Below are positions 294-60,037 of a stretch of 64,000 nucleotides of DNA, one piece after another; position 1 is the first letter of the stretch, and every line of letters begins with the position of its first letter. The notes below the pieces were generated by a model that saw only the letters and a list, made by a program, of their open reading frames with translations, had not been told where the DNA came from and did not search any database. The DNA is taken from positions 4,032,001-4,096,000 of the forward strand of contig CM000150.2 of assembly GCA_000004695.1 (NCBI GenBank). The letters are read 5' to 3'. The position numbers and the translations under genes are program-made. This stretch comes from Dictyostelium discoideum (Eukaryota).

Positions 294-2133
<1,840 letters not shown>

Positions 2134-6648: not shown

Positions 6649-6680
<32 letters not shown>

Positions 6681-6719
6681 CTTTAAATTTAAATAGGGAG
6701 AGGTAGTACTCTTTTTTAT

Positions 6720-6922
6720 TGACTCTGAAATGGTGCGATACAGAGCGAATACAACTTTAGATGTAATGAATAAAGGCATGCCGATATTATTATAATAACA
6801 TCTAAAAACCTCGAATAAAAAATAAGATTAAGTTCGAAAGCTATCACTTAGATAGCAGAACGATTTTAAGCGTTCTAGAACAGATACTACACTTGATTAA
6901 AGCTATTACGCTTCAAGAAGAT
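6720..6922 (-). ncRNA. U2 spliceosomal snRNA gene
   Basis: The minus-strand transcript begins 'AUCUUCUUGAAGCGUAAUAGCUUUAAUCAAGUGUAGUAUCUGUUCUAGAACGCUUAAAAUCG...'. This contains the invariant U2 branch-point interaction box 'GUAGUA' in the context 'AUCAAGUGUAGUAUCUGUUCU', identical to human U2 nt 28-48. There is a 5' stem I, a U-rich Sm-like site ('CUUAUUUUUUAUUCGAGG'), and 3' stem-loops ('GGCAUGCC', 'GCUCUG...CAGAGU'). A TATA-like 'TTAAAAAAG' lies about 20-30 nt upstream. The 5' end (6922) is well supported; the 3' end is approximate by about 15 nt. Confidence 0.75.
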
Positions 6923-7292
6923 TTTTGTGACTTTATTGCTTTTTTAAGGCAAAAAAAGTGATTTTAAAAGTTTTTAATTTCTTCATTTTTATATTCAACT
7001 TTTAAAAAATAATAATTTTGGGAAAAAAAAATCATCACTTTAAAAAATTACAACAAATAATGAAATTTCAAAAATAAAAATTTTTTTTTTTTTAATGAGA
7101 ATAAAATCTAAATCGAAAACTTTTTTTTTTATTTAATTACCCTTAAGAAAAAATTAAATGTGAAAATAAATGTTATATTTATTTTAGTATTGTTTTTTTT
7201 TTATTTCTTAATGCACCATTTGGTTTTATCTAATTTTATAAACTAAAAAAAAAAAAAATTTATTTTTGGAATTAGTTAAATTTAAAAAAAAT

Positions 7293-8823
7293 TTAAATTA
7301 AAATATAATTAATACTTACATCTTTGGTATATTCACCCAAAACTTTTGTAAATTCCTCAATGGAATTGATGTTTTGTAGATCACCATGTTTATTTTCAGT
7401 TAAGAGAATACAATAGATAAGATGATCTTGGCAATCTGGATGATATTTAATGATTTTTGAGTCTGTATCACTTGGAAAAGCTTTACATATTTTTTTATTA
7501 ATTTCATTATAATCTTTATCATCATGACCTTCTTCGCTATCACTTTGATCGCCTTCGATTTTATTTGGGAATTTAAATGGTTCTAAATCATCTTTAATTT
7601 TAACTTCTTTCAATTGAATGATGTTTTCATTTTTAATAAATTTCAATTTTTTATAAAGTTCTTTTACTAAATCAATATTTTTTAAATCGATATATATCTT
7701 ATCTGGGAAAGGTGCGAGTATTGATGTTGGTTCGATAACGGTATTTTGTGTTATAGCAGTTATCGTTTCTTTCCCATCTTTATTTTTTGATGAGGTAACT
7801 GTTAATGTTGATTCAACATAGATATCTTTAAACAATTGGTAAGATTTGGATTTTTCAAAGCTACAAGTGACATCATTATCATCACATAAAATAATTTCCC
7901 CATTGATTGATGGAAACACATTGAAATCGAATAACTCTGATTTGTATTTATTTGTTGTAGTTTGATCCTTAAGTTGGGTTAATAGTGGAATATAAACATT
8001 GTCATAACCATAATTATATTCATTTGAAAATAATTTATCTTCATCTTTTTCATTATTGTAAACGATAATAAATGGATTCAAATGATAGTATTTTTCATCA
8101 TCTCCATAACCTTTAACCTTGGTTTCAAAGTCTAGCTTTCTGTTACCTAAAATTTCTTTGAGATTATTTGGATATTTAGTTATTAATCCGTTTAAATTCA
8201 ACTTTTGACCTGCAATGCTATTTAATCTTAATGATTCTTTTTTAAGATATTGATTATTCTCTGGGTGTCTAATTATACCAACTCTTCTGTAAAAGTATTC
8301 AGAAAGATATTTCATTTTATCACTACAAAAAGCACCACCTCCACGTGCCTCTTGCTTTCCATGCCAATTTAAATCACCAAAGCAAATAGTCCCACCACCG
8401 CCACCGCTATCTACTTTATCTATATTATTGAATTGATAAGAAATTTTAGAATGGTCACTTCCTGAATCAGCACTAATAACTTTTGACCAAGGTTTCGAAT
8501 CTGTAAGAAAGATAAATTGATTCAACTGCTTGAGAAATTGCATTTTCACCTTTTGTAATCTTTGTTTGAGTATGGACCATTGTTTCAAAATTATTACCAT
8601 TTTAAAATTATCTATATAATGCCAAATTATAAAAAATTTAATTTTTTCCTTGTGGGTTTCTTCAATTTTTTCATTATACTCTTTATAAAGGTTTTTATTT
8701 GTTGTTTGAATGAAGTATCTCCCTTTATCACTTTCATAAATTTTATTATAGTGAACATTTGATTCAAGAGGATTTAGAGTCGGGTTTGATGATGTAATTT
8801 CTTGGTTTAGAATTAATTCTGCC
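7293..8823 (-). CDS. Hypothetical protein with a Gly-rich motif '...DSGGGGGTICFGDLNWHGKQEARGGGAFCSDK...'. The 5' end is unresolved.
   Basis: The ORF track lists 7293..8600 starting at ATG 8600. The same frame stays open and coding-like for a further 74 codons upstream ('AELILNQEITSSNPTLNPLESNVHYNKIYESDKGRYFIQTTNKNLYKEYNEKIEETHKEKIKFFIIWHYIDNFK') with no Met. It is bounded by 'aatag' at 8824-8828, a plausible 3' splice acceptor. This implies an unidentified upstream exon, or the ATG at 8600 is the true start. Confidence 0.5.
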
Positions 8824-9032: not shown

Positions 9033-9314
9033 CATACAAAATAAAAATACTATGGATATTCAGTCCACCAAATGATTGCGATCAAAAATTAAAAATAAAA
9101 AAAAAATAAAAAAAATAACTGAAATTATTTTTTTTAATTTTCCCAGTGGTTTTGATCATCAATTTTTTCATTTTTTAAATTAATTTTTATTTTTATTTTT
9201 ATTTTTAATTTTTTTTATTTTTTTTTTAATTAATTAAAAAAGTCTCCCACATTTTTTTTTTTTTTATTTCATTTTCTTTCACAGCAGTTAATAAGTTAAA
9301 TTAAAAAAAAAAAA

Positions 9315-10649
9315 ATGAGTGGATTTATTAAAGATTTATCTCAACCTCAAAGTGAAGCTTTAAATCAATTTAAAGAATATTTAAATAAAAAAGAAACAAT
9401 TGTGCAAATTAAATCAGATATTAAAAATAAATTACCAACAACTACAACAACTACAACAACTACTAATACAGAAACAGAAGAATCATCATCATCATCATCA
9501 CCATCATCAAAAGAAGAAGAAAAACACTTAAAAATTTGGAATATTAATTTAGAAAATGATTCAAAAGAGCGTGATATTATTTTATTAAAATTTTTACGTG
9601 CTAGAGAATTTAAAATTGAAAATTCAAAACAAATGTTAATTGATTGTTTAATTTGGAGAAAACAAAATCAAGTAGATGATTATGAAAAGATAGTTAATGA
9701 AGCATTTCCAGACTATTATAAAAACATTGGTACCATTTTCAAGACTGATAAAGAGGGTAGACCAGTAATGATCAATCATTACCATGCAATTAATCCAGAT
9801 GTTATTTTCAAAGATGGTGTGGACCAATTTGTTCGTTGGAAAGTCCAACAAATGGAAATCGCCATTAGGGATACACTCATCCCATCGCAATGGGAAATTG
9901 AAGATTTAATAGTCATTCACGACTATAAAGATTGCTCATTCTTTAGAATGGATCCACGTATAAAACAAGCATCTAATCAAACCATTCAAACCCTTCAAAA
10001 TAACTACCCAGAATTTTTAGCTCGTAAATTCTTTATTAACATCCCATGGTTAATGGAGAAGTTGTTCTCAATTTTCACAGTATTCACATCAGAGCGTACA
10101 AAAAGCAAATTCATAATTTGTTCTGGAAATTATCGGGAAAAACTTTTAAAATATATTGAAGCAGATTCAATCGCTCCAAAATTATCTGGTTTCGAAGATA
10201 ACCAATCACCAATTTTAAATATTAAAATCAAACCTCAAAAATCACATTCAATTCAATTAGGTAAACTTGATGCTGATAAAACTATTGAATGGGAATTTTG
10301 TACAAATGAGATTGATTCTGAAATTGGTGCTAAAATTTTAATTGAACCAAATAACCAACCAACAACTTCTAATGATATTTTATATTTTAATAATAATAGT
10401 AATAATAATAATAATAATAATAATTCACCAACACCAAGTAATAGTAATTATCCATTCAATTGTTTTCTTTCAATTGAACCAAGAGAATTTAATAGTGGTT
10501 CAATTCAAATTGAAGATGATTCTTATTATACTTTAGTTTTTAATAATCATTTAAATAAACAATGTGATTTATTTTATCGTATAACTATAAAATCAAAAAC
10601 AACTCATTCTTCAACTACAACTTCAACAATCGAAACTTTAGGAAATTAA
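9315..10649 (+). CDS. Sec14-like (CRAL-TRIO) phosphatidylinositol-transfer-family protein with a C-terminal GOLD-like domain
   Basis: A CRAL-TRIO N-terminal motif 'ILLKFLRAREFKIENSKQMLIDCLIWRK' is present. The lipid-binding core is 'GRPVMINHYHAINPDV..LIVIHDYKDCSFFRMDP..YPEFLARKFFINIPWLMEKLF'. The C-terminal beta-rich region 'TIEWEFCTNEIDSEIGAKILIEP...YTLVFNNHLNKQCDLFYRI' is GOLD-like. It is a single exon with an AAAATG start. Confidence 0.8.
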   Translation: MSGFIKDLSQPQSEALNQFKEYLNKKETIVQIKSDIKNKLPTTTTTTTTTNTETEESSSSSSPSSKEEEKHLKIWNINLENDSKERDIILLKFLRAREFKIENSKQMLIDCLIWRKQNQVDDYEKIVNEAFPDYYKNIGTIFKTDKEGRPVMINHYHAINPDVIFKDGVDQFVRWKVQQMEIAIRDTLIPSQWEIEDLIVIHDYKDCSFFRMDPRIKQASNQTIQTLQNNYPEFLARKFFINIPWLMEKLFSIFTVFTSERTKSKFIICSGNYREKLLKYIEADSIAPKLSGFEDNQSPILNIKIKPQKSHSIQLGKLDADKTIEWEFCTNEIDSEIGAKILIEPNNQPTTSNDILYFNNNSNNNNNNNNSPTPSNSNYPFNCFLSIEPREFNSGSIQIEDDSYYTLVFNNHLNKQCDLFYRITIKSKTTHSSTTTSTIETLGN

Positions 10650-15520: not shown

Positions 15521-16802
15521 TTTACTACATATAAAATTTATAATTATTTTTTATTTTTTTTATTATTTTATTTTATTTTATTTTTTTTTTTTTTTCATTT
15601 AAAGGGTTAAAAATAGCAATATATTTATATTTACTAACTTACCACTACTACTCTCTATTTTTTATTTTTTTATTTAATTTTTTATTTTTTATTTTTTTTT
15701 TCACTCTCTACATTCGAACTGCCCACAATTTTTTTATATAAAAAATTTAATTTGTTTATATTTTTTGTATTTTATATCTTTTTTTTTTTTTTAAATTATT
15801 ATTATTTTTTTTTTTTTTTTTTTAATTATTATTATTTATTTTAATTATTTATTTTTTTAATTATTTATTTTTAATTATTATTATTATTATTATTATTATT
15901 TTTTTTTTTTTAACTTATTACAATTTTTTCAAAAAATAAAAATAAAAAAAAATAAAAATAAAATAACATAAACCACACACAATAATAATATTATTATTTT
16001 TTATATTCAATAAACACAATACAATAATAATAATAACAACAAAATACAACACAATAATAATTATTTTTTCTTTCAACTAAATACTATTTTATTTTATTTT
16101 TTATAATTTTTAATTTTTATTTAATTATTTAAAAAATAATTATTCCAATCAATTCTTATTATTATTTTATTTTTCCAACTAAAAAAAAAAAAAAAAAAAA
16201 AAAAAAACCAATAATTTATTTATTTTAAATTTAAATTTATTATTATTATTATTATTATTTTTTTTTTTTATTTTTTTTTATTATTTTTTTTTGATTCGTA
16301 ATAAACTAAATAAAGAATAAAGTATTAGAATTAGAATCATTGAATGAGAATTTGAAGGGTCAGTTGGAATATTTTCAAACTAAATTTTTAGAATCAAATT
16401 TAAATAGCGAAGGAAAGGATATTTCATCATGTTTAACAGAAATTTATAATAGTTTAAGTTTGGATAATAATAATAACAATAGTAATAGTAATAGTAATAG
16501 TAATAATAATAGTAGCAATAGTAATAATAATTCATATTCAAATTTTAATTCTAATAATAATACAACAAACAATACAAAAGTTATTAAAAATAGAAATTTT
16601 AAAATAAATTTAACAAATAGTAATAGTACAAATTCAAGTCCTTATATTTTTGGAAATAATAAAGATAATAGTAATAATAGTAATAATAGTAATAATAATA
16701 ATAGCAACACTGAGTTAAGTAATGACCATTTATCTTTAGAAGATAATATAGCAACAACAAATACAACAACAACTACAACTATAAATACATCTAATAGTAA
16801 TA

Positions 16803-16876
<74 letters not shown>

Positions 16877-17324
16877 CCAACATCAAACCGTCCACCAGTA
16901 GCACCTAGATCATTTATTAGATCAAATTCCGATACATTTATAACACCACCAGGTTCACCAACATCAAGTCGAAATAGTCCAACCAATAAATCATCACCTC
17001 AATTTTTATCACCACTTTCTAAATCACCATTATCACAATCAACTCAATCCACAACAGTATCATCTCCTTCGCCATCTTGGACAACAACAGTACCACAATC
17101 AAAAATGAGATCTGAAACAATTGTACAATCAAAATCACCCTATAGTCCAGATACAAATATATCAAATAAATTAATAAATGAATTAGCGTCAAATATTGGT
17201 GCTCCAAATAGTAATGGCTCTGAAAGTCCTTCTAAAAATTCACCAAGATCATTAAATAGTAATAATAATAATAGTAGTGCAACAACATCAATAACAACAC
17301 CACCAACAACATCAACACCAACAC

Positions 17325-27105: not shown

Positions 27106-27949
27106 TATATATTTTATTTAAATAGTTAACAAATCATAATTATATTTATTAAATAAAGAGGTAATGTGTGGAAATGGTGTTAGATGTTTTTCAAAATATA
27201 TAGTTGATAATAAAGTTTTATCAAAAAATTTAAAAGAACAATTAAATTTTGATGGTGACGATGATATTGAACAAATTATTGAGACTAAATCAGGTATTGT
27301 CAAAACATATCCATTATTAAAACATCATTTAAATAATAAAGATAATGATGTTATAATGGTGAAAGTTAATATGGGAACACCAAAAGTTTCAAGATTTATT
27401 AACGAAATCGATCGTCATATTCCAAAAGTTTTAACAAATCAATCACCAATTGAGAGTTATATGTATACCATTGATATCGGATTACCATACTGTTCAAAAT
27501 TAGAATGTGTTTATGTAACAGTTGGAGGCAACCAATGTGTTGTATTTATCGATAGAAATATTGAATTGGGTTATTTAGATTCTTCATATGGTGATCATAC
27601 AAAATTCTCAACAATTGATTTTAAAGAGATTTCAGATATTATTCAAAGTAATGTAAATGGTTTTGATGATATTCCAAATGTTGAATTTGTAATTCAATCA
27701 CCACAAGATAAACTTGAAAATAAAGTTATCTCAAGAGTTGTTGAAAGAGGTAATGGTGAAACATTAGCATGTGGTACTGGTGCATGTGGTGTAGCAATAT
27801 CATCAATTCTCAAAGGTTATTGTAATGAAAATACTGAAATTACTGTTGAAATGCCTGGTGGTAAATTATTAATTCAATGGAATCCAAATAATGAAATTTT
27901 TAAAACAGGTCCAGCAACATCTGTCTTTAAATCTCAAATTTTAATTTAA
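26777..27949 (+). CDS. Diaminopimelate epimerase (DapF-type), copy 1. Exon model is join(26777..27053,27159..27949).
   Basis: It aligns along its whole length to bacterial DapF. 'FTKMHGAGNDFVVFE' matches 'FSKMHGLGNDFMVVD'. 'KLGIGFDQLIVID' matches 'HLGVGFDQLLVVE'. 'INCDGNIEVMCGNGVRCFSKYI' matches '[22 protein letters not shown]' (first catalytic Cys). 'VNMGTP' and 'GNQCVVFIDRN' are present. 'VERGNGETLACGTGACGVAISS' matches '[22 protein letters not shown]' (second catalytic Cys). 'EMPGGKLLIQW' matches 'ELPGGRLDIAW'. A phase-1 intron (GTATGT donor at 27054, aaag acceptor at 27158) splits the DG..E|xMCGNG motif. Confidence 0.8.
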
Positions 27950-28238: not shown

Positions 28239-29396
28239 ATGGAACCAATATTAATTACAAATAAGCCATCATACAGAATTAATTTTACAAAAATGCAAGG
28301 TGCAGGAAATGATTTTGTAGTTTTTGAAAAAAATAAAGTTGAAAGATTAAATGGTGATCAATCAATAATGACCTATGAAGAAATTAGTGGATTTACAAAA
28401 AAATTATCACATAGAAAATTAGGAATAGGTTGTGATCAATTAATTATTATTGATGATAATCCAAATGATAAAAATGCAGCATATGGTATGGGTGTAATTA
28501 ATTGTGATGGTAATATTGGTATGTATATGTGTGTAAAAAAAATAAACCAAATTGAATAATTAACATAAATATATTTTAACAATAAAATATTTAAACAAAT
28601 AGAAAATATGTGTGGAAATGGTGTTAGATGTTTTACAAAATATATAATTGATAATAAAGTTTTATCAAAAAATTTAAAAGAACAATTAAATTTTGATGGT
28701 GATGATAAAATTGAACAAATTATTGAGACTAAATCAGGTATTGTCAAAACATATCCATTATTAAAACATCATTTAAATAATAAAGAAAAGGATGTTATAA
28801 TGGTGAAAGTTAATATGGGAACATCTAAAATATCAAGATTAATTAATGAAATTGATTATAATATTCCAAAAACTTTAAGTAAACAATCACCACTTGAAAG
28901 TTACATGTACACCATTGATATTGGATTACCATACTGTTCAAAATTAGAATGTGTTTATGTATCAGTTGGTGTTAACCAATGTGTTGTATTTATTGATAGA
29001 AATATTGAATTGGGTTATTTAGATTCATCATATGGTGATTTCTCAAAATTCTCAATGATTAATATTCAAGAGATTTCAGATATTATTCAAAGTAATGTAA
29101 ATGGTTTTGTTGATATTGCAAATGTTGAATTTGTAATTCAATCACCACAAGATAAACTTGAAAATAAAGTTATCTCAAGAGTTGTTGAAAGAGGTAGTGG
29201 TGAAACATTAGCATGTGGTACTGGTGCATGTGGTGTAGCTGTAGCTTCAATTCTCAAAGGTTACTGTAATGAAAATACTGAATCTATTGTTGAAATGCCT
29301 GGTGGTAAATTATTAATTCAATGGGATTCAAATAACAGTGAAATTTTTAAAACAGGTCCAGCAACAACTGTCTTTAAATCTCAAATTTTAATTTAA
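28239..29396 (+). CDS. Diaminopimelate epimerase (DapF-type), copy 2, a tandem paralogue. Exon model is join(28239..28518,28603..29396).
   Basis: It is colinear with copy 1 and has the same motifs ('FTKMQGAGNDFVVFE', 'MCGNGVRCFTKYI', 'GETLACGTGACGVAVAS'). The intron is in the identical position and phase (GTATGT at 28519, acceptor aaatag at 28602). Confidence 0.8.
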
Positions 29397-50407: not shown

Positions 50408-53400
50408 TTATTCATCCATTTCATTATCTTCTTCTTCATCTTCATCTTCATCTTCAATTTCAGCAGGTAAAATATTAATATTTAATTCATGTTCTTGATC
50501 ACAACCATTATAAGAATCAGAGAAAAGATAAAGTGATAATTGATGTTTACCAACAGCAGGAGTTGGGAATTCAAATTTAACCTTTGTTTTCTTTAGGAAA
50601 GTGATTCTTTTGATTGCTAATAAATGATTATTCTTTGAATCACCAATTAAAGCCCACCAACCACAAATCTTTTCTTTTGGATAGTAAGGAGCAGAGACAA
50701 CATTGATTGAATCATTGATTTCGATTGGGTTTTCTTCATCATCACCTAAATCTCTTTCGATAACCATTTCAACCGTCATAATTGAGTCAGCATGTAAATC
50801 ATCTTCATCTTGAACTTGATAGGAGATATCGATATCAGGATATTTCATAAAGGATTGAACGAGATCATTTGATTCTTGTTGTGAGAGATCTAATAACTGT
50901 ATACGACTATTGTCATCCAATGACATTAAATCGAAAACACTTTCAATACCTTGAGATGTGATTGCATCGATACGACGTTTATTCATATGTGGTAATTGTT
51001 TGAAAACACTATCACTATCCCACATTGCTTGAGTGATCATTTGAGATAATTCCATAGCAGCAATTGCAGGTTGTAACCAACTATTACTTGAGATAACATC
51101 CACAATCGCTTGAAGTAAACGAGTTGCATTCTCTAATATGAATTTCTGATCTTGATAAAGGTCAGCAGAGATTGATTCTCTACTGAAATGACATTGAAGA
51201 AGTACATTAACTTTGGTTGAAATCTCTTGATAGTTTGGCTTATCAATCTTTTGAGGTAAATGTGAAGCTAGTTTCATCAAAATTTGATCCTCACGATGAC
51301 GAATTGGTAAAGAGTTAAACTCTGGTGCATTTGAAATAATATCCATGATACCTCTACGACGAGTGGTTGACTTTAATGATGAACCAAACAATTCGATAGT
51401 TTGATATTTAAGATAGTAATAACTTGCAATGATACCTAAATTCAATGGGGAAACTTTATCTTGATCGTCTTGAATGGTGATACAATTTGATTGTTCTAAC
51501 TCCACCAATGTATTTTCAACCAATTCTGAAAGATGTTCAGATAGATGTAAATGTGATACACCGGATAGATTGTAATAATTTGGGTTTTGATTTAAACGAC
51601 GATATAAGAAAGTCCAAGTTAGGTAATCCAAAGCATCTTGTTTCTTTGTGATGGTTTTAGTTACAATCTCTGAATTGAATTGATCATGTAAACAATGATC
51701 TAAATGTGATTCAACTGGTAATGGTTCATTTAAAAACATTTTGTAATACTCTTTCTTTGGTGCATGACATAGTAATAAAACTTTGGCAACTTTATTACTA
51801 ATGACACCACCACCCTCTTGTTTGCCAGCACGACCAATCATTTGTAGGATATCATTGATTGGATAATCAATGTATCTAATGTCTTTGCCTTGATATAATT
51901 GTGTACCCATAATAACTACCAATTGTGCAAAAACATTATCTAATAACCATGCGACTGAATGAGTTGCAATCAATACTCTTATTGAACCAGATCTAAATAG
52001 AATTTCAACTACACGTCTTTCTCTTTCGGTTAAACCATCATGATAGAATGCAACACCCATTTGAAGTGATTGTTTCAATGCAAATGAATCAACATCCTCT
52101 AGATAGGGTGTCAATACATGTTCTTCACAAACTAGATATGGTTTAGTTAAAGTATCCTCGAATGAACTAACATTTGCAATGATATCGGCTGCTAATGATC
52201 TTGATAACTTTCTTGTTGGTACGAATACAATTGATTGTTGATTCTTATTTTTGGCAACTTCATAAACTGTTGGTTTTGTCATTGCCAACATTCTTGCATT
52301 GAAATGTGGGAATTCGAAACCTTGAATTTGATATTCCACTGGTATTGGACGAACATTTGGATGGAAATTATAACAAGTTTGTGGTGTTGCACCAATCCAT
52401 AATACTAAATCTCTAGCGTTGGCAATGGAAGAGGATAAAGCAATCACACGAAGTGCATTACCAGTTTGTGTTGAAATGTAACGCATTCTTGAAACGACAA
52501 TCTCCATTGTTGGACCATATTCACCACCAATTAAATGTAATTCATCAACAATCAATAGATTGATAGATTGTAAAGCTTTACGTTGTTTCCATTTTCTAGA
52601 GAGGATATCCCATTTCTCACAATTTGTAACGATAATATTTGAACGATCTAAAATTTTATTATCAGTAACTGCATCACCAGTTAAATCAGAAACTACCAAA
52701 CCAAATGGTGATTTCACACCAAATTTGTTTGACCAATCCTTTAATCTAACAGAAGCTAAATCTTGCATTGGTGCTAAATAAACAACCTTTGCTTTTGGAT
52801 TTTGTTTGAAACATCTAATCAAAGCAATCTCTGCACAAACGGTTTTACCACTATTGGTTGGTGCAGAAATGAATGCATTATCATTGGATTGATACATACA
52901 ATTGAAGACTTGAGTTTGAATTGCATTGAAAATGGAGAAAGTTGGCTTAAAGATTGATTCAGCTTTTGGATCTTTTAAAACTTGAATTGGTAATGGTTGA
53001 AGATCTAACAAAGGTCTACATGGTGGATATTTCTCTGGTAAAATTAAATGTTGGAAACTGATTGGTAATGAATATTCTGCACCAATCCAATGATCACTAA
53101 TAACACGTACATAATATTGTGGTGGTAATGGTTGTGATAATGGTACGGTGAAACTAACCAATTGATCCTCACCATTGACCATCTTTTTCTTTAATGAGAA
53201 ATACTCAAAGTATAGAATTCTCTCACCATCCACATCCTCAACTATAATCCACCAACCGATTGAATTGTTATGATAACGTTCATCATACTGAAAATCGGGA
53301 GTAATTGATAATTCAACCCTTAAAAGGCCATGTAAAATTGGTTGAACATGTGCAGTTAAATCTAATTTTGGGAAATTATGAATTAAATCGAATAATTGTT

Positions 53401-56400
53401 TACCTTCGGATGGATTTTGAATTGCATTACCAAGTTGTTGAGAATTATATTCGTAGAGATCTTCAATTGGGATACCTCTTCTCTCGAGTTGATTCAATAC
53501 TTTTGGAGAGATCTTGTGGAATTGACGTAGTGGTGATTGTGATGACCACATTTTACTATCGATCATTTTTGCAAGGTTAAGTATTTTCTTTGCCAATTGT
53601 GCCCAACCTTTCTTTAGAACAATTTCAAACAATGCTCTTGTAATACGTGATGCAGATTGTGCAATATAAAACATATCGACCACCAATGCAAAACCATCCA
53701 ATTTCAAATTACTAATATAGGTTTGTAATAAAACATTGATCTTTGAGGAAGGTTCTTCTATATTCTCTTTGATTGGAATTGGTACACGTTCTAGTAATTT
53801 CTCTAATTCGAATTTTTCACCCTCTCTAACAACGACATTTTTAAATTCTGAAGAGAGTGAGAAAACACGAAGTAATTCGATATCAGACATTGAAGGTTTC
53901 AAATGTTCTTGATAGATTGACATTGATGAATTGGTGATATAATAATGTGATGCGACTTTACCCAATTCTGTCGATTGTAATTTACCTGATTTTCTATCAT
54001 ACTTTATGAGGGAATTCTTTTCTAAAATAGTTGCAGCTGAATGAACTAAATCTAGACGACGTTGTTCCAACAATGGGTCCTTTTCAAAGTCATCATAGGA
54101 TATCTCGTAAAGTGGTGGATTTCTAATCATACAAATGTAAAGATAAGTATAGCCTAACCAATTTACAGCATCACGTACGGTTTGAATTGAACCCAATACA
54201 ATCTCTGCATTTAAATTATCGGCTATTCTACTAATGAATTGACTCTCGATTGAGAGTTGAGTATTTAACAAAGAGAGATAGAATTGAAGTTCATGTTGAC
54301 TAGTGATAATTATACCCTCACCTTCTTTATCAAAAGGTGGACGACCTGCTCTACCCAACATTTGAGTTACATCCAATGGTGATAATTCACACCAACCTTT
54401 CTCTGGATTATAAATTTGTGTACCTTTGATGATTACAGTATGTGCTGGTAAATTTACACCCCATGCTAAAGTAGCAGTTGAAATGAGTACTTGAATTCTA
54501 TTATCCCCGAAAAGATCTTCAACCAATGAACGATCGGATCTTGATAGACCAGCATGATGTATACCAATACCATAGGGTAAAAGATCTTTTAACTCTGCAT
54601 TTTGAATTTGTTTTGATGCTGTTGCTCTCAAGATCTCTCTAGATGCTGGATCTCTAATATATCTATCTATCGATTGATCTTCGACGGCACGATCACGTAA
54701 ATCCTTACCTGTCTTTGCAGTTTCACGACGAGAATGAACGAAAATTAATATTTGATGATCACCAACTCTTTCTGATACTTTTGTGAATGTAATGTCATTG
54801 CAACGTTGTAATTGTTTAATACCTCTATCAGAGATACCAATGTATTGTTGCTCCAATGGTATTGGTCTATAGGATGAGTCAAAGTAGAACACACCATCGG
54901 GTTCAACACGTAAAAAGGTTGCAACATCTTCATAGTTTGGTAATGTAGCTGATAAACCAACCAAACGTACCATTTGTTGAGTTGATTCAATCATACGCAA
55001 TGTTCTTGCAACGATGCACTCCAACACAGGTCCTCTTTCATCATGAAGTAAATGAATCTCATCGATAATGATTAACTTCACCAATTGAGTGTATGCACGG
55101 TCACCTGACTTTCTAGTGATAATATCCCATTTCTCTGGTGTTGTCACAATGATTTGAGTCTCTGAGATTTGTTTATTAGTTAATGATTGATCACCAGTGA
55201 GCTCATTCACTACGATGCCATAGGATTTCAAACGTTTACTGAAATTACCCACCATCTCCTGTACGAGTGATTTCATTGGTGCAATGTAAACAATCTTAAA
55301 GGCATCCAATCTGATCTTACCACTATCTCTATCACGATTCTTTCCAATTTCATGTAGAATAGTTAACATTGCAACATTAGTCTTACCACTCGACGTTGGT
55401 GCACTCAACAATAAATTATTATCAGTCTTGAATGCACAATCAAATAATTTACTTTGAACTCTATTTAAACTCTTTACACCAGACTCTTCAAATGGTAATC
55501 TTGACCATTCTGGTAACTCCTCAATCGATATCAAACGTTCATTTGGATTAAATGGTGGATTTGCTCTTGCTGGTACATGAATCTCTTCAAATCCTTTATA
55601 TTGTTCACGTTTACTACCTTTTGGAAATTTAAATTCTTTATTTGTCATTAAATGACTACCTTGTTGAAATGATAATTCTTCTAAATTTAATAATTTTTTT
55701 GGTTTTTTAATTTCATCTTGTTGTTGTTGTTGTTGTTGTTTCATTTCAACATCTTTTTTATTTGATTCTGTTTTTTCTATTGTTTTTTCTGTTGTTGCTG
55801 CTGTAACTTCATTACCCTTTAATCTATTCAATATACTTAATGTTACTGGATTACTTGACATTTCATCTTCAATTTTTTTTCTTTCTTGATCGTTCTCTGC
55901 TTTTGCTAATAATGTACAATATAAAACTAAAAAAAAAAAAAATGTTAGTAAAAAAAAATTAATAAATTTTAATAAAATCAATTTGAAAAAAAATACTTAC
56001 TAGTTTGTTTATTATTTATAATTAATTTTAAAAAATCTAATTTATCAATTGTAAAAAGGTCAACTAATTGTTGTTCACATCTTCTAACATTTGGTTGACG
56101 TAAAATATTTAAAGTTTTCTCTGCTAATTGTTTTGATAAATCATGATCTCTTTCAAATTCACTAATTTTTCTTTGAATCCAAAATGAATCGATTTCATTT
56201 GGACTAATTAATTTACTATTATTATTTTTATCATCTTTTGTATTTTTTGTATCTGGTTTTTGTGATTTATTATTATTATTATTATTCTCTTTAATTTTTT
56301 GATTTTCATCATCATCATTATTATTTTCATCTTTAGTTTGAATTTCAGAATCTTGAGCTTCACTATCATTATTATTATTATCATCAACTTCATTATTATC

Positions 56401-57294
56401 AACATCATCATCATCATCATCATCATCTCTAATTTCAAAATCACTTAAATTCTCTTCTTCCTCTTCTTCATCAATAATGACAGCAACACCTTGCTCATCA
56501 TCTAAAGAATCCATTGATTGTTGTTGTTGCTGTTGTTGTTGTTGTTTTGCTAATTCGCTATCTTTGAAATCTGTAATTTGTTTACCAAGTTGAGTTAATT
56601 CAGCAAATGATACATCATTTAAACCTTTTAATAATTTTGAAATTTCAATTTTCTTTTCAGGTGCACGAATTGTATCGTCCTTTAAGATTGATAAAATTTC
56701 ATCCAATGCGCCTTTAACGACTTCAGTTGGTTGATCACCAACATAACGTTGAATAAATGTTAATAATGTTTCATAGGTTATACGAGTTTCTTTGGTTTTT
56801 GGTTTATATAATCCTTGAAATGATTCAGTTGCTGATAAAATATCAATTGGTTTTTCATTATTATTATTACCATTGGATTTTCTATTGGTTGATTTCTTTT
56901 CCAATGGATTTTGATTCTTTACTTTTTTAGTGGTTGAATAGGTATCATTGGATGAATTTACATCACCACCTTCCTTTTCAATGGTTTTTCTCTTTAAATT
57001 TTGCATCTTTTCTAATAATTCCAAAGGTTTTGAGTAGTTAACTCTATCTCCCATTTCACCTCTTAATCTACCCCATAATGTTTCTGGTTCACCCTTTGGT
57101 TCTTTTAATTCACTTCTATTTCTTTCTGAATAAAATACTAAATTTGAATTCTAAAAAAAAATAAAGAATAAAAATAAAAATAAAAATAATTAAAATTAAA
57201 ATTTATAAGTTGAGAGTTAAAAAAAAAAATAAAAAAAATAAATACTTACTTCTTTATATCCATATTGTTTTGATCTTGCTAATTCTTCAGACAT
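50408..57294 (-). CDS. brr2: Pre-mRNA-splicing helicase Brr2 (U5 snRNP 200 kDa helicase, SNRNP200 homologue). Exon model is join(57250..57294,56001..57150,50408..55926).
   Basis: It is colinear with human SNRNP200 throughout, with two Ski2-like helicase plus Sec63 cassettes. Shared blocks include 'EELPEWSRLPFEESGVKSLNRVQSKLFDCAFKTDNNLLLSAPTSSGKTNVAML', 'IVTTPEKWDIITRK', 'TATLAWGVNLPAHTVIIKGTQIY' and 'SIGWWIIVEDVDGERILYFEYF'. Exon 1 'MSEELARSKQYGYKE' (human 'MADVTARSLQYEYKA') is followed by GTAAGT. Exon 2 begins 'NSNLVFYSERNRSELKEPKGEPETLWGRLRGEMGDR' (human 'NSNLVLQADR...EPTGE..GTRMGDK'). A phase-1 intron (GTAAGT at 55995-56000, acceptor at 55927/55928) precedes '..ILYCTLLAKAEN'. Confidence 0.9.
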
Positions 57295-57971: not shown

Positions 57972-60037
57972 ATGAACAATGAAAACATAGAATCAATGGA
58001 TATTGAGCCTCCACCACCACCACCTTCACCACCACTTACAACAATAACATCATCATCATCGTCATTATCATTATCTTCATCATCATCAAACTTTAACAAA
58101 GAAGAATTAAAACTTTGGGTTGGTAGTTTACCAGATGAAGTAACAGAGTTAGAATTAAGAGAATTCTTTTCAAAATATTCAATTAACGAAATTAAATTAA
58201 CAGAGAATTCAAGTATACAAAAACAAAATGCATTTGTAACATTTTTCGATAAAGAATCAGCAAATAGAGCACGTGAAGAATTATCTCAACAATTATTTAA
58301 AAATCAAAGATTAAAAATCAATTGGGCAAGTGTAAAACCACAAAAATATTCTGATATGCCTGTAATAACAACAACAACAACGCCAACACCAACAACACCA
58401 CCATTAACAGCAACAGCAATAGCAATACCAACAACAACAGTATCAACACCACCTCATCATATTTCACAATTACATACGAAAACAATTCATATGGACCCAT
58501 ATAATAGTTTGAGTCATTATGGTACGGGTATTCATCATCATTATACTCATCCACAACCACCACAAACATTTTCAACTGGTTATCATTCAGTTTATTATGG
58601 TAATAAAGAAACTAGTGGTAAAGATAGTACTGAAACTAATAACTCCTCTGTAAATAATAAAGCATACCCACCAACACCACCAACCACAGTTTACCACCAC
58701 CACCACCACCACCACCACCACAAATGACAACAACATCAACAACAACTGTTGTATCAACACCACCACCACCTCATACACATCCACATACACATACACATCC
58801 ACACCCACACCCACATCCTCATTCATACCCTTACACTCATCAACATCATCCTCCCCCTCCTATTCCTATGCCCATTCCTATTCCTCTTCATCACCATCCA
58901 CATCATCCACATCATCCTCATCACCCTTCACCACCACCACCACCACCACCGCCACATTCATCACTTCATCATCATAGTAGTCATCATAGTAATCATCATC
59001 CAAAAATAATAAGTGATAATGATCCATATGTAAATAAAAAATTATTTTTGGGATCACTTGGTGATGAACCTGAAGAAGAAGTGCGTTATAGGTTTAGTAG
59101 ATTTGGTGAGATCGATTGTTTCGATTTAACAAGTAAAGGTGTCGCATTTGTTCGTTATTTAAAGACTGAGAGTGCAATTATTGCAAAAAGAGAATTGGGA
59201 TATAGATATAAGATACAATACGATAAAAGAGAACCAAGAGATCATTATCATTTCGATCCAAATGGACCATCTTCGTTCATTAGTGGTGGTGCTAGTCAAT
59301 ATTATGGTCCTGATTATTATTCTAAACAACAACAACAACCACAACAACAACCACAACAACCACCACTTTCATCTTCGACTTCGTCATCATTGTCATCATC
59401 TTCTTCACATCCAACACCACCACAACCATTACCATTACCATTACCACCATTACCACCAACGTCATCATCTTCCTTATCTACATTTTATAATGAACCTTTA
59501 TCAACAGAGGAATATAATCAATTTTTATTATTTTTAGAAAAATTACAACCAACTAGATCATTAATTAAAGTTTGTATATTCAAAAATAGTTTTAAATTAT
59601 TATTATCATCATCATTATTATTATTATTATAATTATTATCATCATAAATCCTAATATATATATGTACAACCCCACACATTCAAATATAGGAATCAAAAGA
59701 TTGGTTTATTTTACATTTAAAGAGTGGTAAACCAATAATTCAATTAATGAGCAAATATATTAATAATCAATTAACATTGACAACCGTTCAAAATAAGATT
59801 GAAATCATCTATTTAATCAATGATATTCTTTATTTTGGTGCATCAAGAAGGGGAAGTGAACAAAGTGATCAAATCTCTGATTTATTTGAACCATTTCTAC
59901 CAATTATTATTACTTCTTTCTCTAAAGAACCAATTCAAGTTCAACAAAAATTATTTCATGTATTGGATATTTGGGATTCAAGATATTTTTATCCTTATAA
60001 AGTTATTCAACATTTTAAAAATTTATTAAATAAATAA
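57972..60037 (+). CDS. RNA-binding protein with two RRMs, His/Pro-rich linkers and a C-terminal CID (RPR)-like domain. As sequenced it is split into 57972..58727 and 58724..59569 by a frame change, followed by a final exon at 59690..60037.
   Basis: RRM1 is 'KLWVGSLPDEVTELELREFFSKYSINEIKL...NAFVTFFDKESANRAREEL'. RRM2 is 'KLFLGSLGDEPEEEVRYRFSRFGEIDCFDLTSKGVAFVRYL'. The CID-like region 'EEYNQFLLFLEKLQPTRSLIK|ESKDWFILHLKSGKPIIQL...IYLINDILYFGASRRGSEQSDQISDLFEPFL...HVLDIWDSRYFY' matches the RPRD/Pcf11 CID pattern (L..W..H...; LYLANDV.Q.S.RKG.EF; RVL.IWEER.VY). The proposed last intron has a weak GTTTGT donor at 59570 and an atatag acceptor at 59689, and is phase 0. Confidence 0.6.

Follow-up and report, generated by a model that had tools for sequence, protein, structure and literature searches.

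On the minus strand of the window, i.e. the whole 64 kb stretch of Dictyostelium discoideum AX4-type DNA analysed here, a U2 snRNA gene is located in the 647-bp gap that separates a ComC-like gene from a DNase II-like gene (Table 1). According to the search with Rfam covariance models, RF00004 (U2) matches the window at 6922..6708 (-) over model positions 1-192/192 with 77.1 bits (E = 1.8e-13), the gathering score being 46. U2 is the sole RNA family above its gathering score in the 64 kb window. A preliminary description of this DNA had proposed a minus-strand U2 gene and suggested a covariance-model search, and the search bears the proposal out. The GUAGUA box, stem I, the Sm-like U-tract and the 3′ stem-loops named in that description are all located in the matched region. 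The gene had also been placed outside any ORF, and this holds, as the ORFs overlapping U2 are merely mechanical (21-48 aa); exact look-ups of two of them gave no match. The locus is confirmed as a genuine U2 snRNA gene of D. discoideum.

The gene shares with the RF00004 family the full-length model match, the AUCAAGUGUAGUAUCUGUUCU core, stems I, IIa, IIb, III and IV, a U-rich Sm-like tract and the GCAC loop of stem-loop IV. It differs from the family in its AT-rich stems, the 30-nt expansion of stem-loop III, the sequence AAUC, an Sm-like site ending in A, and a probable 37-nt 5′ leader hairpin, which is located outside the family model. In AX4, 36/37 checked pairs of the U2 stems are standard. 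The remaining pair is a G.A in outer stem IV, and it is present in every lineage compared (AX4 and the assemblies ACTFIW, ACTFIR and ACTFIY, hereafter the four lineages). The sequence UAUUUUUUAUU (6824..6813) is a tract of six U flanked by A. The A replaces the usual G of RAU4-6GR and is kept in the four lineages.

Before the branch-point box, AAUC stands for GAUC. In the pairing scheme of U2/U6 helix Ia, the change from GAUC to AAUC would swap G.U for A-U against a U6 of the GAUUAGC type. The U6 on metagenome contig L009 is of this type and reads ACAGAGAAGAUUAGC. AAUC is also found in a 164.7-bit U2 of an unrelated eukaryote (metagenome contig L010). The change was considered as a pseudogene defect and rejected on these two grounds, i.e. 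the 164.7-bit U2 has AAUC, and the pairing with a GAUUAGC-type U6 would improve. In two metagenome scans, the U2 and U6 genes detected were all from unrelated eukaryotes, and no dictyostelid U2 was among them. L009, which is eukaryotic, has at 1397..1625 (-) a U6 gene and, immediately after it, a U2-like sequence; the two matches overlap by a few bases.

Table 1. Features of the U2 locus and of genes in the window (window coordinates)
Feature	Position	Strand	Remark
SF3a3/Prp9 ORF	874..2133	+	4.6 kb from U2
ComC-like gene	ends 6553	+	flank of the 647-bp gap
Genomic A29 run	6652..6680	-	directly after the trailer, from 27 nt past the Rfam 3′ end
Conserved 3′ trailer ACUACCUCUCCCUAUUUAAAUUUAAAG	6681..6707	-	nearly invariant in the four lineages
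U2 snRNA body	6708..6922	-	215 nt, RF00004 full length
Stem-loop IV	6753..6715	-	U2 body; GCAC loop
Stem-loop III	6806..6756	-	U2 body; 30-nt expansion
Sm-like U-tract AUUUUUUA	within 6824..6813	-	U2 body
Stem IIb	6856..6840	-	U2 body
Stem IIa	6876..6857	-	U2 body
U2 core AUCAAGUGUAGUAUCUGUUCU	6897..6877	-	same in all four lineages
Branch-point recognition GUAGUA	6890..6885	-	inside AUCAAGUGUAGUAUCUGUUCU
Stem I	6916..6897	-	U2 body
Linker CACAAAA	6923..6929	-	single-stranded, from hairpin to canonical U2 5′ end
Predicted 5′ leader hairpin ACUUUUUUUGCCUUAAAAAAGCAAUAAAGU	6930..6959	-	30 nt, 5 + 4 bp; predicted start at its first base (A, ~6959) or beside it
TATA box TATAAAAA	6986..6993	-	same position in the four lineages; TATTAAAA in ACTFIY
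DUSE TCCCAAAA	7016..7023	-	exact [AT]CCCA[AT]AA; unchanged in the four lineages
DNase II-like gene	7201..8737 (ORF 7293..8600)	-	ends ~7201
Brr2	50408..57054	-	43.5 kb from U2
Two RRM then CID	57972..60037	+	adjoins Brr2

Promoter elements and the predicted 5′ leader

The DUSE consensus [AT]CCCA[AT]AA is located ~63 bp upstream of the ncRNA genes of D. discoideum and D. purpureum, all spliceosomal RNA genes included (PMC3188802). The spacing has also been given as ~60 nt, and the DUSE serves Pol II and Pol III genes alike (PMC7919456). At the U2 gene, the DUSE is located at -101..-94 from the canonical 5′ end, which is 38 nt too far in comparison with the published spacing. The preliminary description had noted a weak DUSE-like box at about -100, further upstream than usual. 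The position and the unusual distance (-101 against the published ~60-63) are correct, whereas the box is not weak, as it matches the consensus exactly. The motif has 11 matches in 128 kb (both strands of the window), fewer than in shuffles, and a same-strand match within 150 nt upstream is a ~1.3% chance event. The matches at 59053 and 53373 were considered as further ncRNA promoters and rejected, because both are inside coding ORFs.

Counted from the canonical U2 start, the TATA box is at -71..-64; in all four lineages, it is 34 nt upstream of the base of the predicted leader hairpin. TATA-like, A/T-rich motifs are common in the D. discoideum genome; a TATA-type motif is expected by chance in the correct 11-nt window at 0.5-1.7%. 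The TATA-like element that had been assigned to -20/-30 turned out to be the A-rich loop of the conserved leader hairpin, and the true TATAAAAA is at 6993..6986. A perfect 11-bp inverted repeat, TTTTAAAAGTT / AACTTTTAAAA (7007..6997 and 6972..6962 (-)), brackets the TATA box, with one mismatch in ACTFIY. The repeat could be a factor-binding palindrome, or it could have arisen by AT-rich chance at roughly a few per cent.

When the 40 nt before the U2 start are folded separately for each of the four lineages, the leader hairpin is the MFE structure every time, with energies from -4.2 to -8.1 kcal/mol, the AX4 hairpin being weak (-4.2 kcal/mol). Among shuffled sequences, a fraction of 0-0.04 reaches the hairpin energy or falls below it. 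The distance between the DUSE and the hairpin base is 64 nt in 4/4 lineages, whereas the distance between the DUSE and canonical U2 is 101, 100, 100 and 99 nt. The changes in the latter distance come from indels in a U-run and in the linker. In ACTFIY the linker is 2 nt shorter, and the DUSE-to-hairpin spacing is unaffected.

In the outer stem of the hairpin, a compensatory change U-A -> C-G is found between AX4/ACTFIY and ACTFIW/ACTFIR. These paired changes are the sole two substitutions in -100..-1 between AX4 and ACTFIW/ACTFIR. According to a simulation, the chance that two random substitutions make a compensated pair is ~0.002. A MAFFT gap in the stem of the hairpin was adjusted manually; the single-sequence folds give the same hairpin, and the covariation is independent of the edit. 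The compensatory pair, which is one event among lineages ~3% diverged, suggests that selection acts on the structure of the RNA or of the single strand. The conservation of -1..-100 could come partly from promoter function.

Because of the promoter geometry and the one covariation event, we infer a start at ~6959. The odd position of the DUSE would then be accounted for, because the start is probably located ~37 nt upstream of the canonical U2 5′ end, before the conserved hairpin. In the proposed mechanism, the DUSE and the TATA box would set the start ~64 nt downstream of the DUSE, and the primary transcript would consist of the 30-nt hairpin and the 7-nt linker, followed by an otherwise standard U2. 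As in any other U2, the body would base-pair with the branch points of introns and with U6. The leader would be either kept, giving a variant snRNP, or trimmed, in which case the long transcript would be a precursor. The locus would be one paralogue of a small U2 gene family, found at this place only in the D. discoideum species complex. The predicted transcript contains internal U7 and U6 runs. Such U-runs are Pol III terminators. Since they would terminate Pol III, transcription is presumably carried out by Pol II. The best explanation is a functional Pol II U2 gene that is driven by the DUSE and the TATA box, starts at ~6959, and produces a transcript with a 37-nt 5′ leader hairpin, and we assign it a probability of roughly 0.6.

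A rather unlikely alternative is a canonical U2 which starts at AUCUUC (6922), with the DUSE acting from -100 and the intervening stretch being promoter DNA, not RNA. The body has every U2 hallmark and a typical AUC start, and the A-rich TTAAAAAA is located at about -27 from 6922. However, the distance from the DUSE to 6922 varies, while the spacings of 64 nt (DUSE) and 34 nt (TATA box) to the hairpin are fixed, and the sole two substitutions in -100..-1 between AX4 and ACTFIW/ACTFIR are the compensatory hairpin pair. Moreover, the box ~60 nt downstream of the DUSE in Class I RNA genes is itself a suspected precursor start (PMC7919456).

The fixed geometry and the covariation also fit to a start at ~6959 from which the 37-nt leader is cut off, resulting in a U2 of standard length; the hairpin would then act as a signal for processing or stability. 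Against such trimming, Sm-class snRNAs keep the capped primary 5′ end (textbook), on which cap hypermethylation and import depend, and we know of no 5′ trimming of U2 elsewhere, nor of any capped Sm-class snRNA. In addition, Hinas et al. in 2006 reportedly described stable U2 species which keep an extra 5′ stem-loop. The layout is analogous to that of the Class I genes, which have a far-upstream DUSE and a TGTG box, the proposed precursor start (PMC7919456). We regard the trimmed leader as improbable, and the start at ~6959 with the leader in the transcript is the reading adopted below.

At the other end of the gene, the 3′ trailer possibly carries a 3′-end formation signal. In the region 6712..6700 (-), UACUAC is a perfect complement of GUAGUA, and the MFE fold pairs both. 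The trailer was thus considered as a branch-point mimic masking GUAGUA; this was rejected, as 11-12% of the shuffled or genomic controls reach the duplex energy of -9.2 kcal/mol. The A-run that follows has a length of 20-29 among the lineages. As a speculation, oligo(dT) could prime read-through transcripts at A29 and so mimic polyadenylation; polyadenylated snRNAs have been reported.

Conservation of the gene in close relatives

The interval from the ComC-like gene to the CRAL_TRIO gene was compared in seven assemblies. The CRAL_TRIO ORF near U2 encodes 444 aa and is identical to D. discoideum XP_646478.1/EAL72361.1. At the syntenic site, U2 is present and co-oriented in AX4, ACTFIW, ACTFIR and ACTFIY. 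ACTFIW and ACTFIR are labelled D. discoideum and ACTFIY D. cf. discoideum, and the three show ~3% nucleotide divergence from AX4 in the CRAL_TRIO CDS. The amino acid identity of their SF3a3 ORF to that of AX4 is 87% (13% differing), and the gene content differs too. According to these sequence differences, the three assemblies look like cryptic sister lineages of AX4, i.e. distinct species. In D. citrinum and D. dimigraforme, no U2 was found at the syntenic site, though SF3a3, the ComC-like gene and CRAL_TRIO are retained. Only the D. discoideum complex has this U2 locus, which is a recent gain there. The position of U2 is occupied in D. citrinum (L004 ~16700..16900 (-)) and D. dimigraforme (L007 ~9100..9420 (-)) by a common small coding-like segment (...GATATTAAAGATCAATTAAAATA...GAATATTGTGG...).

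The U2 orthologues score 77.9 (ACTFIW), 72.3 (ACTFIR) and 66.9 bits (ACTFIY) with RF00004, and the ACTFIY sequence is intact. The U2 body shows zero indels among the four lineages. The 37 body pairs include two changes of C-G -> U.G and one pair broken only in ACTFIR (stem IIb), over the four lineages. Nine more variable columns are found in the U2 body, and all of them are unpaired. Hardly any variation is seen in the 5′ 90 nt and in stem-loop III. The four lineages are too similar for the U2 body to show covariation.

Selection was examined by comparing the unit of 315 nt (-100..-1 and the U2 body) with four segments of ordinary intergenic DNA from the same loci. Between AX4 and ACTFIW, substitutions amount to 2.2% in the unit and 5.9% in the flanking intergenic DNA (p = 0.01, Fisher), and gap columns to 0.3% and 16%, respectively (p = 4e-19, Fisher). 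By this comparison, the U2 unit is under purifying selection. The concern that the copy might be a pseudogene, raised at the outset, is not borne out by these values.

Because substitutions and indels are depleted and the promoter is intact, a decaying or silent U2 pseudogene, which would seem intact because the compared lineages are so close, is disfavoured. The locus is young, as its absence from D. citrinum and D. dimigraforme shows, and its score of 77 bits is modest in comparison with the 150-165 bits of the U2 genes in metagenome contigs L010/L011. The pair of stem IIb broken in ACTFIR, the scores falling to 66.9-72.3 bits in two lineages, and the A-run after the gene, as in retroposed copies, also fit to decay. 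However, the depletion relative to the flanking intergenic DNA is found especially in indels, the promoter elements keep their fixed spacing, a retrocopy would not carry the DUSE and the TATA box, and the 5′ 90 nt and stem-loop III hardly vary. The pseudogene is thus highly improbable, and the functional gene with the predicted leader is preferred.

Known U2 variants and small RNA promoters

D. discoideum snRNA genes were reportedly catalogued in 2006, with 17 verified genes. Expressed, divergent U2 species of D. discoideum, with the U2 hallmarks and an extra predicted 5′ stem-loop, are said to have been described by Hinas et al. in 2006. These U2 variants reportedly follow the ncRNA promoter, show cytoplasmic enrichment and are regulated during development. 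The present gene resembles them in the organism, the U2 motifs, the predicted 5′ stem-loop and the DUSE promoter, whereas its body is not strongly divergent. On structural grounds, the locus most likely fits the 5′-extended U2 variant class of D. discoideum. The retention of the leader and the identity with the published variants, like the start site, are what we infer here. The papers citing Hinas et al. 2006 and related work do not go into the details of these variants.

The number of 'rnu' genes in dictyBase is 18 (PMC3188802 supplement). The annotation of D. discoideum almost certainly includes the locus already; any Infernal/Rfam pass finds it, and the finding itself matters little beyond annotation. 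The additions made here are comparative, i.e. the probable explanation of the DUSE oddity by a leader at fixed spacing, the recent gain, and the accidental linkage described below. If the leader start is confirmed, the gene would provide a sequence-unique handle on the function of 5′-extended U2 and on the DUSE spacing rule.

In the Class I RNA genes whose DUSE is far upstream, a TGTG box with the sequence AAATGTG lies ~60 nt downstream of the DUSE and may be the precursor start (PMC7919456). The U2 gene is similar to these genes in that the DUSE is >60 nt from the mature 5′ end and a defined sequence is located ~60 nt downstream of the DUSE. However, the box here is AAAATCAC, not AAATGTG, and the product is U2 snRNA, not a ~60-nt Class I RNA. 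The U-runs here argue for Pol II, whereas Pol III has been suggested by the authors for Class I (PMC7919456). One may go further and suppose a young U2 isoform of the D. discoideum complex in which the retained hairpin alters cap accessibility, localisation or partner choice, with the order DUSE - 64 nt - start - leader - mature RNA as a design of Dictyostelium in general that the TGTG-box Class I genes also have. This extended proposal is doubtful. If the general design is true, it answers whether the Class I TGTG boxes mark precursor starts.

In the case of plant and vertebrate snRNA promoters, a USE or PSE, with or without a TATA box, at a fixed distance sets the start, and this arrangement is common to Pol II and Pol III. 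The promoter described here is similar in having an upstream element at a fixed distance and a TATA box, whereas the sequence of the DUSE is unrelated. To our knowledge, spacing rules for polymerase choice are not established in Dictyostelium.

Neighbouring genes

The proximity of U2 to two genes of spliceosomal proteins had been noted, with distances of 4.5 kb to sf3a3 and 44 kb to brr2, and a spliceosome-gene neighbourhood had been judged a probable coincidence. The measured distances (Table 1) agree with these values, and the synteny of D. citrinum, D. dimigraforme and D. purpureum backs that judgement. The genes from U2 to Brr2 are unrelated. In D. purpureum, no U2 was found within 10 kb of SF3a3. 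A spliceosome gene cluster was thus rejected, since U2 is missing near D. purpureum SF3a3 as well as at the D. citrinum and D. dimigraforme syntenic site. Because the linkage of U2 with sf3a3 and brr2 is not conserved, it is regarded as accidental.

The DNase II-like gene is found between the U2 promoter and CRAL_TRIO in AX4-type assemblies only. The corresponding interval of ACTFIW, ACTFIR, ACTFIY, D. citrinum and D. dimigraforme does not contain it. The gene is a recent insertion, or it was lost elsewhere.

Elsewhere in the window, a sub-threshold match to sR30 was rejected as a TGATGA-rich coding repeat, and a match to MIR1507 was rejected because it is far under its gathering score. The RRM-RRM-CID gene mentioned in the preliminary description is present, and its two RRM domains come before the CID (RNA polymerase II CTD-interacting) domain. 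In Nrd1/SCAF8-type proteins the CID is N-terminal, and the order RRM-RRM-CID is unusual beside them. Two tandem ORFs of ~260 aa each (27164..27949 and 28608..29396 (+)) have a diaminopimelate-epimerase domain (PF01678).
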